The position numbers and the translations under genes are program-made. The notes beneath the pieces were generated by a model. The model saw only the letters and a program-made list of their open reading frames with translations, was not told the origin of the DNA and made no database searches. A stretch of DNA of 5,442 nt from an uncultured archaeon (lineage in GTDB: Archaea > Asgardarchaeota > Thorarchaeia > Thorarchaeales > Thorarchaeaceae). The stretch covers positions 1-5,442 of the forward strand of contig CAYHAA010000044.1 of the NCBI GenBank assembly GCA_964354495.1. Reading direction: 5' to 3'. Shown here piece by piece: positions 1 through 5,442 of this stretch; the stretch's first letter is position 1; each line of letters starts with the position of its first letter.

Positions 1-1871
1 TGACCAAGAGCCTCACGTCTATAACGCACGCCCTCGATCATCATCCCCCACAGGTTAGCTGAAAGATTCCAGCTATGTCTTTGCATTCCTCCCTTTCCTT
101 GGAACGAACGAAGGTCTTCAAAGTAGATGGTCTTCACACCATGCTGTTCACAGAACCACACGGTCTCAGCGGCGATCTGATGGGAGATCTCCTTGTCTAG
201 GCGACGGACTTTCTGCCACACTGACTCCAGCTCCTGTTCCTTCTTGAGGATGATAGCTGGAGGCTGCTGCCTAGCATGTTTCTTCTCCCAGTTGTTGCGC
301 TTTCTCGCAATCTGTGACATTAGAACTCTGGTTTCTTGTCGCAATCTCTCTCGCTTTTCAAATAGCTCCTGTCTTCCTATCATGGTCTCCTCGTAGGTAC
401 CATCCCCATTCTTGATGGATACTACCATCGAGTGCCTGAGTCCCCTGTCAACACCAGCCCTTCTCTTTCGGGTAGATAGCACTGGAAGGGTGGTCTTCAG
501 TAGGTCCTCATCAGGGGACATGAAGGGTATGTTCAAGGTGACTCTCTTTCCTTCAATCTTGACCAGTGGTGGTGCTGACCTTCTCGATTTCTTCAGCTCA
601 AATGCAATTTTCTTCAAATCGTGAATTCGAATCTCATTCTTCTCTGGTTGAACTCGTTCTCTAGCAAGCTCACGGGTGAACTGCTGAATCTTTATTGTAT
701 TCTCTAATTGGTTACTCATGTCCTCAAAACATGCAGCTCGATAGTCAAGCTGCATAGCTCGTTGGATATGACCTTGTGCTCTTGCTTCCTGTGCCTTTCT
801 CCTTGCTCTTGCAGCCTTTCTAGGAAGCCAGTTCAAGAATCTCAGTCGTACTGTCTGACTCTTGTATGGTGAAGGAGTATCTTGTTCATGACCTACTATT
901 CCCGGAGGGGTCTTGATGTAGAGAATGATCTCATCCTCTCTCTCTGGGTCTTGCTGGAACCAGTACCCCTGACCAGTGGTGTTCTCTGTAGAGGCTGCAA
1001 AGTCCACTGTATGTTTCTGGAAGGTTGGATTGATGAATGGAAATCCAATCTTTTTCCATGCTTTGACTTGCTCAATAATCAATGTCTGAGTTCTCAATCT
1101 ATCTGGAGATTTTTCATCTAGTAGCTCCCGAGTACTTCTCCGCTCATCTTTCTCTGGTGGATAAGCTTCACGTACCTTTGACCTCAGAGCACTCTTCACC
1201 TGTCGGCAGGCTGAGAGAGCATAGTGATAGGAACCATTAGACTTCTTCTCAATGGCGTCTTTTACTCTTCGAATGATGTCTGATGGAATCCTTCTATTCT
1301 TCATCAGTCGCATGAGTTGTTCATCATCAGATGCAAGGATGTCTAGTAGTGAATTCACGAGTCTTCGACGAGTATAGGTAGCAAGTATGATTCGAGCTGC
1401 GGTCTCAAGGGCGTTACGATATAGTCTTTCATATACAAGTTGTCCAAATTCGTTCTCAGGTTCCCATTTGAGCCGTTGTTCTTTTCGTAGGACCAGATAT
1501 ACCATTCCTCTACAATCATCTAGTTCTTCTCCCAGCATACTCAAATAAACAGAGTCAGCAAACGCCTTTTCCAAGATTAGATTCACTACTTTTCGATAGC
1601 TATTGAAACTCTGAGAGAGAACTGAAAAATCCAAATTGCTACATTTACGACCACTGAGTTCCCGAAGCATATCAGATGGAACAACAGTGGTTAAAGGTCT
1701 TCTATCCAGTCCCTTACGAGCTACAACTCTAGAGTACGAATTCAAGGCGAACTTTTGGACAAGAAGAGTCGATGATGGGTAACTTAAAATATCGTCCATT
1801 GTTTTTTGCGCTGGTTTTACATGAGTAGGAACCATCTGCTCGCGGGGACGACGCCGCGAATCTTTCTTCAT
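1..1871 (-). CDS. tnpB: Large TnpB/Cas12-like RuvC-domain RNA-guided endonuclease (3'-truncated by the window edge; >=623 aa)
   Basis: Manual translation gives a stop-free frame from ATG at 1871-1869 to the window edge: MKKDSRRRPREQMVPTH...RAGVDRGLRHSMVVSI...VWQKVRRLDKEISHQIAAETVWFCEQHGVKTIYFEDLRSFQG...LWGMMIEGVRYRREALG. RuvC-I GVDxG Asp is D475 (codon 449-447). A basic bridge-helix-like segment follows, then RuvC-II hhhEDL Glu E585 (119-117), then a Wxxh...hxY helix typical of TnpB/Cas12f. N-terminal TnpB-like motifs FNSYRKVVNLIL (aa 89-100) and GFPFINPTF (aa 276-284). GGTGA Shine-Dalgarno 7 nt upstream. The symbol is family-level only; TnpB versus Cas12 cannot be decided from this window. 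Confidence 0.88.
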   Translation of the reverse strand, partial: MKKDSRRRPREQMVPTHVKPAQKTMDDILSYPSSTLLVQKFALNSYSRVVARKGLDRRPLTTVVPSDMLRELSGRKCSNLDFSVLSQSFNSYRKVVNLILEKAFADSVYLSMLGEELDDCRGMVYLVLRKEQRLKWEPENEFGQLVYERLYRNALETAARIILATYTRRRLVNSLLDILASDDEQLMRLMKNRRIPSDIIRRVKDAIEKKSNGSYHYALSACRQVKSALRSKVREAYPPEKDERRSTRELLDEKSPDRLRTQTLIIEQVKAWKKIGFPFINPTFQKHTVDFAASTENTTGQGYWFQQDPEREDEIILYIKTPPGIVGHEQDTPSPYKSQTVRLRFLNWLPRKAARARRKAQEARAQGHIQRAMQLDYRAACFEDMSNQLENTIKIQQFTRELARERVQPEKNEIRIHDLKKIAFELKKSRRSAPPLVKIEGKRVTLNIPFMSPDEDLLKTTLPVLSTRKRRAGVDRGLRHSMVVSIKNGDGTYEETMIGRQELFEKRERLRQETRVLMSQIARKRNNWEKKHARQQPPAIILKKEQELESVWQKVRRLDKEISHQIAAETVWFCEQHGVKTIYFEDLRSFQGKGGMQRHSWNLSANLWGMMIEGVRYRREALG

Positions 1872-1878
1872 CGACACT

Positions 1879-1903: not shown

Positions 1904-1911
1904 ATATATAA
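1904..1911 (-). promoter_or_regulatory. Putative archaeal TATA box (TTATATAT) of the TnpB/Cas12-like gene
   Basis: Minus strand reads TTATATAT from 1911 to 1904, about 33-40 nt upstream of the ATG. This predicts a TSS near 1880-1885 and a very short leader. Confidence 0.55.
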
Positions 1912-1931
1912 GCCCATACTACGTATGGGCT
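1911..1931. repeat. Perfect 9-bp inverted repeat AGCCCATAC-tac-GTATGGGCT
   Basis: 1911-1919 agcccatac is the exact reverse complement of 1923-1931 gtatgggct, with a 3-nt spacer. The arms are GC-richer than the surrounding AT-rich spacer. Function (operator or IS-end hairpin) is unknown. Confidence 0.9.
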
Positions 1932-1933
1932 AC

Positions 1934-1941
1934 TTAATATA
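1934..1941 (+). promoter_or_regulatory. Possible plus-strand TATA box (TTAATATA), mirror of the minus-strand TATA across the palindrome
   Basis: TTAATATA lies directly right of the inverted repeat. It is >110 nt from the nearest plus-strand ATG, so it may be chance in AT-rich DNA. Confidence 0.3.
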
Positions 1942-2043
1942 CCAGAGTTAATGATTAGATGATTATTTGATACTCCAAAATGAATTAGATGGAGAAAATA
2001 ACCTAAGATAAGAAGACCACCCTAGAAATAATACTCCTAAAAT

Positions 2044-2057
2044 ACAAAGATAAATAT
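2044..2057 (+). promoter_or_regulatory. Possible BRE/TATA (acaaaga-TAAATAT) for a leaderless transcript starting at ATG 2083
   Basis: An A-rich BRE-like run is followed by TAAATAT at 2051-2057, 26-32 nt upstream of ATG 2083, typical archaeal leaderless spacing. No clear SD precedes either ATG. Confidence 0.35.
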
Positions 2058-5000
2058 GAAACTGCTGAGATATACTAGTGCGATGGCTCAATCAAGAGGA
2101 CGCCCAGTAAGACCAATACCTGTACACCCAGAGCGGGTGATATCGAGGGCAGTGAAGGCGGGACTCTCAGCCACCATCAGGCTACAACGAAATATTGTCA
2201 ATAAGAGGACAAAGAAATACTACGAACGTTCGTTCAATAACTGGAGTATCAGGCAACAGGTCTATCGAATCACAAAGGAACGAGGAACTCCAGATTTCTC
2301 TCACGTCAGTAAGGCAGAGGCCTCTATCAGAGATAACACACGACTGATGTTCTTTGAGAACGCAGCCAAGTATGGTTTTACTGAAGTCAGTAGACAGAAG
2401 AATGCAGACGATACCGTTTCTCCTCTCAACCAACGGTTCAATGCATGTGGTGCAGTTGTCCGAGAGAACTCCGAGATCATGTTCCCTTTCCCGGAACCAG
2501 TGAGTTTTGGGACACACACCAGACGACACGGTAAAGCCAGAAAGGAGTATAGACGCGCAGGATATGATGGGTCATCTTTTGCACCTCAGGTGATTCTTGC
2601 TCATCCAGACCTTCCCTCACTTGACTTTGGTGATGCTGTTCGTAGCCATAATGAGTATCTTTCGACCTTCTGTGCAATCCATGATGTTCCCGTGAAAGAA
2701 ACTACCAATTATAGTCACCTCTTCTACTTGCTGACTCGTCCATATCTGGAGCATCTCTATTCGGAGTTCAAGTGTGGCAAGGCCAACTTCCAGAAGGGCG
2801 TGAACTGGGCACTCCGCCAGGTCAAAGAGTTGATTCTTGAGGCGGGATATCAACCGACAATGTATAGTAAGCAGACGGTGACCAAGGAACGTGAGTTCGA
2901 AGAGTCAAAGAGTAAGGAGGAGAACAAGACCTTCTTAAAGAGAAATGAGAGAGCGGCAAGAGAGTTCTATGGGAATCATCCTGCAGTTGCTGAGCTTAGC
3001 AGGTTGAGGGGGATACTTGGGGATGATAAAGACACCATTGATGAGAAGAACAAGACTAGTGAAGAAGCCACGAAGGAAGATGATGATGGATTATTCACAT
3101 TACAGGATGTTGGATATATCAGGAATGAGGTGGCAAAGAGAGCACGAGTTGCTGGCTCGATTATGCACCGGAGAATAGCAGCTCTCTTCCCCAGCCCCTG
3201 GCATCTGAACGATGTCATTTTCTCAGGGGACAAGTACGCTCGTTCCTCTGACTATATCATCATCTCGGAGGTTCCCTTGCAGACATCATATGGAGCAGGT
3301 AAGGTGGACCTCATTCTCTGTGAGCGGACCATCAGTAATGATGGAAAGCAAGTCTTCTGGAGACCTGTCTTTGTCCTTGAGATCAAGACTCGGTTAGGAC
3401 AGAGCTGGTATGTTGATGCAAACTACAAGGAGTCAGAGGTCCGTCCTGATGGGAGTCCCCTTCAGCGAGTTGTCTGTGAGTTTCCACTCAGTGACTATCC
3501 CCTCAGTGACAATCTATGGGATGCCATTGTGAAGTCAACACCAAGCATTACTGCACAGAAACAGTTGGATGTCTATTGTCAAGCGCTCAGTGAGAATTAC
3601 AGAGATGGAACACAACAGGAATTGGGGCATATATTGAGGGGAGTTGTGGTCATTGAGTCCGCCTCTGACATTACTGAGATACGAAGAGTGCTGGAACAGC
3701 TCATTGTCCATGGATATGAGTCTGTGAAGAGTAGAGTCCGTAGGATTAAACGTACGGTCTTCACACCACCTGAGAGGGATAGTAGTCGTATCGCATTAGT
3801 CATGGATGGACAGCCTGGTCCTAATAGACAGGATGATGAGATGATTCAGGCTCCATGGGGTCCAGCCTACACTCCATTCAATGCCAAGAAGAAGACCAAG
3901 AGAGAGTTTCTGCTCTATGTTACTGGGCATTCTCCAACCTCTGCGGGACAGTCTGCGGCCTGGAACGCACGATATTACCATGGTCTACAGTTCCTGCATG
4001 AGATGAAGAAGACACAGGAGAATACTGAGTTTGTATGGGTCGATTTGGCAAGTCAGTTCAATGAACCTCGACTTGCAGAGGCACGCCTGCGTCTGCGACC
4101 ACGGGGGTATGCTGAGGAAGAGCTAGCCAAGGTCCAACCTGACCACATTCGAGAGTTCTTCGAGAGTATCAAGGTTAAGGGATACTTGGATGAAGTCTTG
4201 TCATTCCTGTACAGAGGCAGAGAAGTACCATCCTTTGAACTGAAGTTAAAGAAGAACAAGAGAAAGGTGATTGTTGTCACTGGGGCAGACACAATTCGTG
4301 ATGCCACTCCAACCTCTCATAGAACACGATTCTCTGAGCTCATAGACTATCTACTGAGTGGTCTTCCTGATGATGAAAAGACCACTATCGTGTGGTTCGA
4401 CGCTCCAGTCCCCTCTGTTGAGAAGTCTATTCCCTACTCAACCAGAGCTCTCAATCCCTACTATGATATATCCCCCTTGAGAGATGTGGTGACGGAGATA
4501 GTCTGGAATCTCCCAATTGCACCTAAAGGTGCTGTGCAACCCGAGAAGTGGGGACTCCCCATCATCGGTGATGCGCCCATGCATGATGATATCAGAGTCA
4601 TCATTAGACATTCTCCAACTGAGTTTCAGATAGAACTGATCCATGCTCCTCTCTTGCGAGGCTGGTCAAAGAGGTTCAGAAACAAGGGGACTGGGCGAAT
4701 CATCCGAGAACGAGAGTTGGATGATATAGTTCCTGATAAGACAGTACGGAATCGAATGAAGCTCCTCTCCCTGACCATGCTCCCTTGGCTGGTGAAACTC
4801 CAGTCAAACAAGACCCTAGTTGAGGACTCCATAGAGATCCTTCAAGAGCAATTCTCTCATCTAGAGAATGAGTTTCGCAGAGGAACGGAACCACTGGATA
4901 TTCTAAGGACTGTTCTTACTGAACCACCCTGCACCCCTCCCAGTTTGCTTGATTTAGTTAGATTCAGACTCCCAGCTGCCATGGATGCACTGTCCTATCA

Positions 5001-5442
5001 AGCTATGACCGCAGGGAAGATAAATTCCCAACGCCTCTATCGTTCTCCACGGAAGATACAGACTCAACCGGTTCAGGTAGTTCCACCATCTTCTCCAACA
5101 CAAGAGGCACCAATCATCGATAAAGATACACTAGAACATGAGTGGTTGTTTGGTGTCAAGTTCGAGAGCGACAATCAAGATATTCATTCCTGGTGGATGG
5201 TGGTTCAAGACCCCACCCATCCAGCAAGGATGCTCGTTGGTTGTTTCTCTGATGGGCCACCGGACAAGGATGGATTCCTCTGGGCCGAGAATAGGCACGA
5301 GATACTGACACAGTCCAGTCTGGATGAGATGCTCAGTTCCCTTCAGACCACAATGATTGGGAGGAAGACTGAGGAAGGACTAGAACTGTGGCTCTCCAGA
5401 GACTGTGAGGAGGCAGTCTATGCAGGGATTCTTGAGGTGAGG
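2056..5442 (+). CDS. Large multidomain protein: unknown N-domain + PD-(D/E)xK (RecB-like) nuclease + inactivated RadA/RecA-fold domain + unknown C-domain (3'-truncated; >=1129 aa from ATG 2056, 1120 from ATG 2083)
   Basis: Frame +1 is open from ATG 2056 (in-frame TAA at 2038-2040 upstream) to the last base, with no stop. Translation begins MKLLRYTSAMAQSRGRPVRPIPVHPERVISRAVKAG and ends ...RDCEEAVYAGILEVR. The start could be 2056 or 2083. Domain motifs are listed in separate features. Confidence 0.93.
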   Translation, partial: MKLLRYTSAMAQSRGRPVRPIPVHPERVISRAVKAGLSATIRLQRNIVNKRTKKYYERSFNNWSIRQQVYRITKERGTPDFSHVSKAEASIRDNTRLMFFENAAKYGFTEVSRQKNADDTVSPLNQRFNACGAVVRENSEIMFPFPEPVSFGTHTRRHGKARKEYRRAGYDGSSFAPQVILAHPDLPSLDFGDAVRSHNEYLSTFCAIHDVPVKETTNYSHLFYLLTRPYLEHLYSEFKCGKANFQKGVNWALRQVKELILEAGYQPTMYSKQTVTKEREFEESKSKEENKTFLKRNERAAREFYGNHPAVAELSRLRGILGDDKDTIDEKNKTSEEATKEDDDGLFTLQDVGYIRNEVAKRARVAGSIMHRRIAALFPSPWHLNDVIFSGDKYARSSDYIIISEVPLQTSYGAGKVDLILCERTISNDGKQVFWRPVFVLEIKTRLGQSWYVDANYKESEVRPDGSPLQRVVCEFPLSDYPLSDNLWDAIVKSTPSITAQKQLDVYCQALSENYRDGTQQELGHILRGVVVIESASDITEIRRVLEQLIVHGYESVKSRVRRIKRTVFTPPERDSSRIALVMDGQPGPNRQDDEMIQAPWGPAYTPFNAKKKTKREFLLYVTGHSPTSAGQSAAWNARYYHGLQFLHEMKKTQENTEFVWVDLASQFNEPRLAEARLRLRPRGYAEEELAKVQPDHIREFFESIKVKGYLDEVLSFLYRGREVPSFELKLKKNKRKVIVVTGADTIRDATPTSHRTRFSELIDYLLSGLPDDEKTTIVWFDAPVPSVEKSIPYSTRALNPYYDISPLRDVVTEIVWNLPIAPKGAVQPEKWGLPIIGDAPMHDDIRVIIRHSPTEFQIELIHAPLLRGWSKRFRNKGTGRIIRERELDDIVPDKTVRNRMKLLSLTMLPWLVKLQSNKTLVEDSIEILQEQFSHLENEFRRGTEPLDILRTVLTEPPCTPPSLLDLVRFRLPAAMDALSYQAMTAGKINSQRLYRSPRKIQTQPVQVVPPSSPTQEAPIIDKDTLEHEWLFGVKFESDNQDIHSWWMVVQDPTHPARMLVGCFSDGPPDKDGFLWAENRHEILTQSSLDEMLSSLQTTMIGRKTEEGLELWLSRDCEEAVYAGILEVR
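3154..3660 (+). other. PD-(D/E)xK / RecB-family nuclease domain within the large plus-strand CDS
   Basis: Ordered motif set, numbered from ATG 2056: G367-SIM-H371 (GxxxH helix); E405 (ISEVPL); G-K-V-D418-LIL; VL-E442-I-K444-T; Q503-L-D-V-Y507 (QLxxY); then hydrophobic strand LRGVVVIE. This matches the established RecB/AddB/Cas4-type PD-(D/E)xK signature with all catalytic residues present. Confidence 0.85.
3907..4656 (+). other. Degenerate (probably ATPase-dead) RadA/Rad51/RecA-fold domain
   Basis: FLLYVTGHSPTSAGQS (Walker A position, Lys replaced by Q632). FVWVDLASQFNEPRL has the same D,+5F,+9R,+10L spacing as Rad51 YIDTEGTFRPERL, with the catalytic Glu replaced by A665. KVIVVTGAD (Walker B position, Asp replaced by T742). 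PIIGDAPMHDDIRVIIR...IELIHAPLL resembles the archaeal RadA C-terminal core PIGGHILAHSATLRVYLR...IARLIDAPHL. Aligned by eye against remembered sequences. Confidence 0.62.

Follow-up and report, generated by a model that had tools for sequence, protein, structure and literature searches.

The 5,442-bp stretch of archaeal DNA analysed here (the window) likely holds the 5′ 89% of the gene for a transposon-encoded, RNA-guided TnpB (OMEGA) endonuclease, which belongs to a Thorarchaeota-specific lineage grown to ~700 residues. Judged by its sequence, the nuclease is apparently active. The window is the whole of contig C44 of a Thorarchaeota metagenome-assembled genome (MAG) of 3.3 Mb in 51 contigs, and it is filled by two divergent open reading frames (ORFs), each cut off by a contig end: the tnpB-like gene on the minus strand and a giant gene on the plus strand. 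Other contigs of the same genome are referred to below as C1, C3 and so on, and loci of related elements as L007, L008 and so on.

In the proposed mechanism, a structured scaffold would be transcribed from the final ~60–110 nt of the element, a stretch that takes in the stop codon of tnpB, and the DNA flanking the right end would supply the guide. The nuclease would cut sites that match this flank and lack the element, leading to homing or retention as in ISDra2. A second, partial scaffold formed by the opening ~27 codons, together with a 16-nt promoter match at a YTGRT-like motif, would lead to self-repression of transcription.

Reading frame, catalytic residues and the missing 3′ end

The tnpB-like ORF can be read from a GTG (1877..3, 625 codons) or from an ATG (1871..3, 623 codons). 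The ATG at 1871 was taken as the start because the family-consensus N-terminus, MKK..RRRPR, begins there. The frame remains open up to the contig edge, where its last residues read ...RYRREALG. The features of this gene are as follows.

3..1871, minus strand: tnpB-like coding sequence, 623 codons from the ATG; the contig edge falls ~77 codons short of the expected stop
447..449, minus strand: codon GAC of the RuvC-I catalytic aspartate D475 (context AGVDRGL), invariant in the alignment of relatives
117..119, minus strand: codon GAA of the RuvC-II catalytic glutamate E585 (context IYFEDLR), invariant in the alignment of relatives
1905..1911, minus strand: TTATATA, a candidate archaeal TATA box of tnpB, in a layout common to related loci

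An initial annotation of this DNA had counted 474 residues ahead of the RuvC-I aspartate and 110 from D475 to E585; the recount from the ATG at 1871 gives the same numbering, and the observation is therefore correct. Its statement that the visible catalytic residues are intact was likewise borne out, both being present and invariant in 43 relatives. Profile matches of the window TnpB are confined to the C-terminal third of the protein and comprise Pfam OrfB_IS605 (E 3e-4), NCBIfam guided_TnpB (E 3e-7) and the PADLOC Cas12u3/Cas12f profiles (E 4e-9 to 1e-7).

Because the contig ends, the Zn-ribbon and RuvC-III of the window copy are out of view. A continuation of C44 was sought on other contigs of the genome, and none of C17, C7 and C24 continues it. 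The sequence on C17 is 93% identical to window positions 1–79 over 79 nt and is a separate mini-element, in which the left-end repeat comes first and the frame has an in-frame stop. The paralogue on C24 is 84% identical and runs on as ...GHKQGGIWLVNPAWTSQTCHVCGE...CPRCDEHFHADVNAARN, with a stop 77 codons later. The closest database relative, P0003, is 702 amino acids (aa) in full length and 89% identical to the window TnpB. In P0003 numbering, the catalytic residues D476, E586 and D679 and the zinc-ribbon pairs C642/C645 and C669/C672 are invariant or nearly so in the 43 aligned relatives, and in paralogue P0123 the Pfam profile Cas12f1-like_TNB is matched with E 1e-14. The CxxC...CxxC motif and the RuvC-III aspartate that the initial annotation had proposed to check are thus present in nearly all relatives, the window copy's own end being beyond the contig edge. 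Since full-length relatives and the C24 paralogue carry that end, the window copy was very probably a protein of ~700 aa with a full catalytic triad. A total of 700–780 aa had been projected, and this holds at the low end of the range: close full-length homologues measure 698–709 aa, and the full copies in the same genome, at 37–40% identity, measure 721 aa (C1) and 712 aa (C3).

The close relatives form at least 150 clusters, nearly all labelled Thorarchaeota, and most full-length members have 698–762 aa. They are encoded on 465 stretches of species-representative genomes, a single MAG carrying as many as ~10, and 3′ fragments are frequent among them. The N-terminal 470 aa are private to the family, as the 30 clusters that match among 1.84 billion representative proteins are all members or fragments. 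In the genome of the window itself, three full or near-full tnpB copies (C1, C3 and C44) are accompanied by deletion derivatives on C24, C7 and C17.

Fold of the protein and location of the added mass

An AlphaFold2 model was built for the 702-aa homologue P0003 with the 43-sequence alignment (predicted local distance difference test score, pLDDT, 76; predicted template modelling score, pTM, 0.60), and the residue ranges in this section refer to it. Foldseek searches with the model returned Cas12f (E 5e-10), ISDra2 TnpB (E 5e-7) and many Cas12 types too. In VIA-align, the highest score was obtained with Cas12f (Z 18.2), followed by Fanzor2 (Z 14.1), ISDra2 TnpB (Z 13.9) and ISFba1 TnpB (Z 13.5). 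Since ISDra2 TnpB aligns along nearly the full model, with 340 of its 362 residues spanning model residues 34–693, the whole TnpB/Cas12f core (WED, REC, RuvC and Zn-ribbon) is predicted to be present. The check by AlphaFold and Foldseek suggested in the initial annotation thus returned a complete core when run on this homologue.

Beyond the TnpB core, about 320 residues are added according to the secondary-structure map of the model, and they fall into four parts. The first is a basic, disordered N-terminal tail (residues 1–35 and 43–75, pLDDT <50). The second is the roughly doubled REC lobe, which is helical and has ~210 residues (66–276); the REC region of ISDra2 TnpB has ~110. The third is a helical hairpin of ~80 residues (350–430) between WED strands, and the fourth is a lengthening of the RuvC helical lid.

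Element ends, putative guide-RNA scaffold and mobility

Both ends of the window copy are off the contig, and the anatomy of the element was read from its relatives. The right end is sharp in 77 loci: the terminus ACAATGAACGGT (...ACAATsAACGGT) is followed by unrelated, variable flank. In all 77, the same order was observed, namely CCCAG-N8-CTGGG, GGAC, a small hairpin across the stop codon, TTTGTCC and AAyTWACAATsAACGGT. The gap-free 62-nt class of these ends (29 loci) was used for covariation analysis with a hand-drawn three-helix structure. In this set, 98% of the cells are paired and 7 of the 14 pairs show compensatory changes; none of 500 shuffles was as good, and slid controls reached at most 44%. 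RNAalifold on automatic alignments of the 3′ module and of the 5′ module described below recovered the first hairpin only. The 62-nt structure is, by its pattern of sequence change, the signature of a putative omega-RNA scaffold that would end at the transposon end and take its guide from the flank. An Rfam scan of the window and three paralogue loci found only a tRNA.

The left and right ends have a common inverted repeat (GACAAAGTTGGACAT / ATGTCCAAGTTTGTCC). The left end is conserved as GGGT...ACAGCT...GACAAAGTTGGACAT, and a gene for an IS607-type serine recombinase with a MerR helix-turn-helix (HTH) follows ~45 nt downstream of it. In L016, L057, L059, L062, L089 and C24, this IS607 tnpA lies past the giant gene's 3′ end, and decayed IS607 remnants were observed directly upstream of tnpB in L028, L040, L056 and L070. 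From the placement of the left end and tnpA in these related loci, the full element of the window subfamily is predicted to run in the order left end, tnpA(Ser), aCas1 (the giant gene, on the reverse strand), tnpB and right end. Flanks of the left end are heterogeneous, and the YTGRT-like motif before the promoter site is only a candidate target-adjacent motif (TAM).

In the C1/C3-type subfamily, tnpA was not seen. This subfamily often adjoins tRNA-Lys(CTT), with the conserved flank yrGTGGCTyAGCmrG. The C3-type loci L007 (C3, 5887–6030), L038, L058 and L050 lie beside tRNA-Lys(CTT), and in C3 the tRNA has an intron. The conserved flank right after the end of C3-type elements points to a single target locus, reached by site-specific insertion or by homing under a guide.

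Shortened forms are also seen. Mini-elements of ~180 bp on C4, C25 and elsewhere consist of a left end, a TATA box, ~110 nt of scaffold and a right end, and they resemble independent genes for guide RNAs, which the nuclease could serve in trans. They were located at C4:57821–58001, at C25:3028–3165 and at other sites, and C17:19880–20240 is a fusion of a left end with the 3′ part of tnpB. At C24:10742–13829 (L008) and C7:24397–28520 (L009), internal-deletion derivatives were found in which the giant gene, reduced to its C-terminal part, joins the 3′ part of tnpB in a back-to-back fusion. These deletions remove both 5′ halves together with the common promoter; on C24, the IS607 tnpA and the left end are still intact.

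Among the identities offered in the initial annotation, that of an expanded OMEGA nuclease is supported by a conserved right end carrying structured RNA next to variable flank, by inverted-repeat ends, multi-copy spread and deletion derivatives, and by the presence of IS607 tnpA in many loci. The question raised there of an omega-RNA or CRISPR repeats downstream was answered in two parts, with structured RNA at the right ends of relatives and no CRISPR array in the window or beside the paralogues.

A second guide-like module in the 5′ end of tnpB

A second set of guide-like features was observed at the other end of the gene.

1841..1858, minus strand: hairpin CGCGG-N8-CCGCG in codons 5–10, homologous in shape to the first hairpin of the 3′ scaffold
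1791..1802, minus strand: ACAATGGACGAT in codons 24–27 (TMDD), one base off the right-end terminus ACAATGAACGGT
1775..1790, minus strand: guide-like segment of 16 nt, ATTTTAAGTTACCCAT, starting where the internal terminus copy ends
1925..1946, minus strand: TCTGGT and the 16-nt promoter site ATATTAAGTAGCCCAT, the site itself at 1940–1925, just upstream of the TATA box

The stem of the 5′ hairpin covaries across loci (CGCGG/CCGCG, TCCGG/CCGGA and TCCAG/CTGGA), and in some loci the 5′ and 3′ hairpins have almost the same sequence (TCCAGTGCCAGTCCTGG). The segment ATTTTAAGTTACCCAT is identical at 13 of 16 positions and on the same strand to ATATTAAGTAGCCCAT, which lies 13 nt upstream of TTATATA. 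A match between guide-like segment and promoter with at most 3 mismatches in 16 was found within the same locus in 23 of 29 loci, as compared with 13 of 812 cross-locus pairs, while the guide-like 16-mers of different loci differ at a median of 9 of 16 positions. Over the 29 loci, the promoter site stands at a fixed 126–139 nt upstream with YTGRT-like bases before it, and the match is also kept where the giant gene is missing, for example in L028, L035, L051 and L070. A motif followed by a protospacer in the sense of the guide is the geometry required of a TnpB target.

The simplest reading of this locus-specific match would be selection for a guide–target relation, and we infer that the TnpB protein may repress its own transcription by means of the 5′ guide. 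That these 5′ codons double as RNA would also explain why part of the added N-terminus is a disordered tail. A two-guide enzyme, with a right-end guide for homing and, for RNA-guided self-repression, another mini-scaffold spanning the first ~27 codons, is proposed tentatively, as a possibility of somewhat less than even standing.

The giant divergent neighbour

The second ORF of the window encodes an aCas1-like protein, the features of which are given below.

2056..5442, plus strand: giant aCas1-like gene, first 1,129 codons, truncated at the other contig end, with M10 at 2083 as its likely true start
2098..2805, plus strand: fold like the Cas1 catalytic domain, residues ~15–250, with invariant E110, H183, D190 and D193 (model and alignment)
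3307..3387, plus strand: PD-(D/E)xK nuclease motif, D418 ... E442-I-K444, Cas4/RecB-like, identified as a motif

Full-length relatives of this protein have 1,640–1,660 aa. The giant ORFs that lie head-to-head with tnpB on C1 and C3 have 1,800–1,907 codons, and that on C44 has at least 1,129. Most members of the family lie head-to-head with a gene for a protein of 1,650–1,900 aa; of 33 related loci that have a full tnpB and sufficient DNA upstream of it, about 23 contain the divergent giant gene. In L013 (3838–12130), which has no divergent giant gene, tnpB is preceded by three co-oriented genes for a 1,417-aa protein, a Rad51/KaiC-like ATPase and a 233-aa protein.

No match to the giant protein was found in Pfam, NCBIfam or PADLOC, nor with a profile against all PDB sequences. 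An AlphaFold model of residues 1–400 (pLDDT 81.5) was more informative. Cas1 entries top the Foldseek list weakly (E ~0.1), and in a fold search independent of Foldseek the top 12 of 48,161 chains were all Cas1 or casposase (Z 8.7–12.9), aligned over 150–196 residues with a root-mean-square deviation of 3.6–4.3; the next, unrelated rows have Z <7. Model residues ~15–250 pair with the C-terminal catalytic domain of Cas1, and E110, H183 and D190/D193 would fit the E...H...D pattern of the Cas1 active site, the correspondence of residues being inferred. The ORF also contains, at 3483–3514, a 15-nt tandem repeat of 2.1 copies that encodes a doubled PLSD(Y/N) peptide and is probably trivial.

Because the giant neighbour carries a Cas1 fold, we take the pair of tnpB and giant gene to be the 'aCas1-TnpB' locus of Makarova 2020. 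The aCas1-associated TnpBs were later divided by Altae-Tran 2023 into two Asgard groups (Cas1H-Asgard-1/-2), and aCas1 was suggested as the transposase (PMC10691335). The suggestion that the window gene might fall within a described family of the same size was true in part: aCas1-associated Asgard TnpBs have been described (PMC10691335), and close relatives are all ~700 aa. Aloposons, the giant-gene transposons of Heimdallarchaeia (PMC8813620), were considered as the identity of the giant neighbour and ruled out by their tandem genes for 3,000–6,000 aa, their integration at tRNA sites and the lack of any mention of TnpB.

In the published aCas1-linked tnpB loci, a hypervariable stretch lies between a conserved T and a downstream GTTCACTCA motif (PMC10691335). 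When this motif was tried as a mark of the ~700-aa family, the genome-wide search led to another type of element. This second aCas1-TnpB type has a TnpB of ~560 aa and was found at C6:13508–18998, C27:7156–13000, C17:229–4833 and C31:7872–12452; the motif was also seen with this type on C43. Its ends carry GTTCACTCA after a variable stretch of ~14 nt, and its aCas1 is only 25–27% identical to that of the window. As two groups were published, the description of GTTCACTCA may hold for one group only.

Weighing of alternative explanations

Several observations count against a transposon-encoded, guided TnpB nuclease in the window. The 3′ end, the right end and the guide of the window copy lie past the contig edge, and the ~700-aa family is known from sequence and predicted structures. 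The likeness to characterised TnpB/Cas12f is very weak by sequence (PDB phmmer E ~0.02), and the hidden Markov model (HMM) matches of the window TnpB fall under curated cut-offs. GTTCACTCA was found after none of the 77 right ends of the ~700-aa family, and because it is absent, the family was placed in a named published group by context and not by a tree. Also, since the scaffold's first hairpin is part of the coding region, its conservation is partly protein-driven.

The most probable of the alternatives, itself improbable, is a CRISPR-less type-V-like defence or 'proto-CRISPR' module, in which the nuclease would be the effector and the Cas1/Cas4-like giant would install or renew guides. Such a role would suit the joining of a Cas1 fold to a PD-(D/E)xK motif, as in the Cas4-Cas1 fusions of type V-B (PMC10691335), the Cas12 size of the nuclease, and the 16-mers, which vary by locus yet remain matched to a second site. 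Against this role, the locus shows transposon behaviour in its inverted-repeat ends, its many copies, its deletion derivatives and its tnpA; no CRISPR repeat array was found in the window or beside the paralogues, and the guide–promoter match persists in the four loci named above that have no giant gene. Because no array adjoins and the locus behaves as a transposon, the nuclease is not regarded as a CRISPR effector, and the unclassified type V effector considered in the initial annotation is given up on the same absence of an array.

Quite improbable, too, is a domesticated, immobile regulator of the TldR kind, with transcriptional control as its main job and the nuclease out of use. Family-wide conservation of the three catalytic residues and of the Zn-ribbon upholds the earlier view that this is not obviously a dead enzyme of the TldR/Cas12k/Cas12m type. 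Moreover, copies stand in different genomic contexts with unrelated flanks, and mini-elements and internal-deletion copies point to recent mobility. These outweigh the conserved self-matching 16-mer beside the gene's own TATA box and the 3 mismatches in 16 of the window copy, which would favour binding over cutting.

Least probable is a decaying pseudogene fragment that looks intact due to its missing end: truncated or internally deleted copies do occur in the genome (C24, C7 and, with an in-frame stop, C17) and the 3′ end of the window copy is not assembled, but all 625 codons are open to the contig edge, no damage is seen in the two visible catalytic residues, the promoter, the 5′ module or the divergent partner gene, and both contig breaks lie inside repeated sequence, as assembly collapse would give.

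Comparison with known systems

The transposon-encoded TnpB of the window can be compared with the aCas1-associated Asgard TnpBs (PMC10691335), with which it shares a Thorarchaeota host, the pairing of tnpB with a giant Cas1-like protein, flanking repeats and a hypervariable stretch after a conserved end. It differs from the published ones in that the ~700-aa family is without GTTCACTCA and in that the IS607 recombinase is often found beside aCas1 within the same ends and is not replaced. In common with ISDra2 TnpB (PDB 8h1j), there is the WED-REC-RuvC-Zn-ribbon core with its D/E/D triad and a structured RNA over the 3′ end of the gene that stops at the transposon end and would draw its guide from the flank, a feature read here from sequence alone. 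The protein has ~700 aa as compared with 408, its RuvC-I aspartate is at 475 as compared with 191, and the identity is 13–17%. The transposase context also differs, being a serine recombinase and/or aCas1 where ISDra2 has a Y1 TnpA, and the conserved scaffold is short, 62 nt with covariation and at most about 110 nt in mini-elements.

The best structural matches are found with Cas12f (AsCas12f, 8dzj; Un1Cas12f1, 7c7l; Z 15–18), which has a similar compact architecture. Unlike Cas12f, the ~700-aa TnpB is transposon-borne, has no CRISPR array or cas operon, and is larger than the 400–530 aa of solved Cas12f; an N-terminal zinc-finger domain was not detected in it. IS607-family TnpB and Fanzor (mimivirus Fanzor2, 9b0l) resemble it in the IS607-type MerR-HTH serine recombinase of many loci and in being enlarged relative to IS605 TnpB, whereas the archaeal host and the giant Cas1-like cargo gene between tnpA and tnpB set the present family apart. 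The structural match is at Z 14.1, and no evidence of specific kinship to Fanzor was obtained.

For the 5′ module, a parallel may be drawn with tracr-L (Workman et al. 2021), which, as cited in PMC8730458, provides autoregulation of Cas9 by a natural guide to the nuclease's own promoter. The two are alike in a guide to the own promoter and in pairing so imperfect or short that repression would be more likely than cleavage; here, the guide-like RNA would lie within the first codons of the nuclease's own mRNA, and the nuclease is a transposon TnpB, not a CRISPR enzyme.

Significance

The ~700-aa TnpB family is already catalogued in the literature and is uniform in size. What is added here is a domain map of the expansion, a short scaffold backed by covariation, the occurrence of IS607 tnpA together with aCas1, and cross-locus support for a self-guide. 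Growth in the size of RNA-guided nucleases is usually told within the story of TnpB-to-Cas12 domestication. In the present lineage, the size of Cas12j/Cas12-lambda (~700 aa) and an enlarged REC lobe were reached inside a transposon. The idea in the initial annotation of an intermediate in TnpB-to-Cas12 expansion therefore stands as an analogy only, as the lineage reached Cas12 size yet stayed transposon-borne. Since a protein of Cas12 size goes together with an apparently short scaffold in a transposon-borne system, the family offers a natural test, independent of CRISPR, of protein replacing RNA scaffold.

The family constitutes the nuclease half of the Asgard aCas1-TnpB elements. As the IS607 recombinase is often kept, the role of the Cas1-like giant could be that of a transposase, of cargo or something else. 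A nuclease that is compact, divergent and, from its sequence, probably active, and that would use a short guide RNA, is also a candidate editing tool. If the self-matching guide is true, it would represent a new form of transposon self-control.

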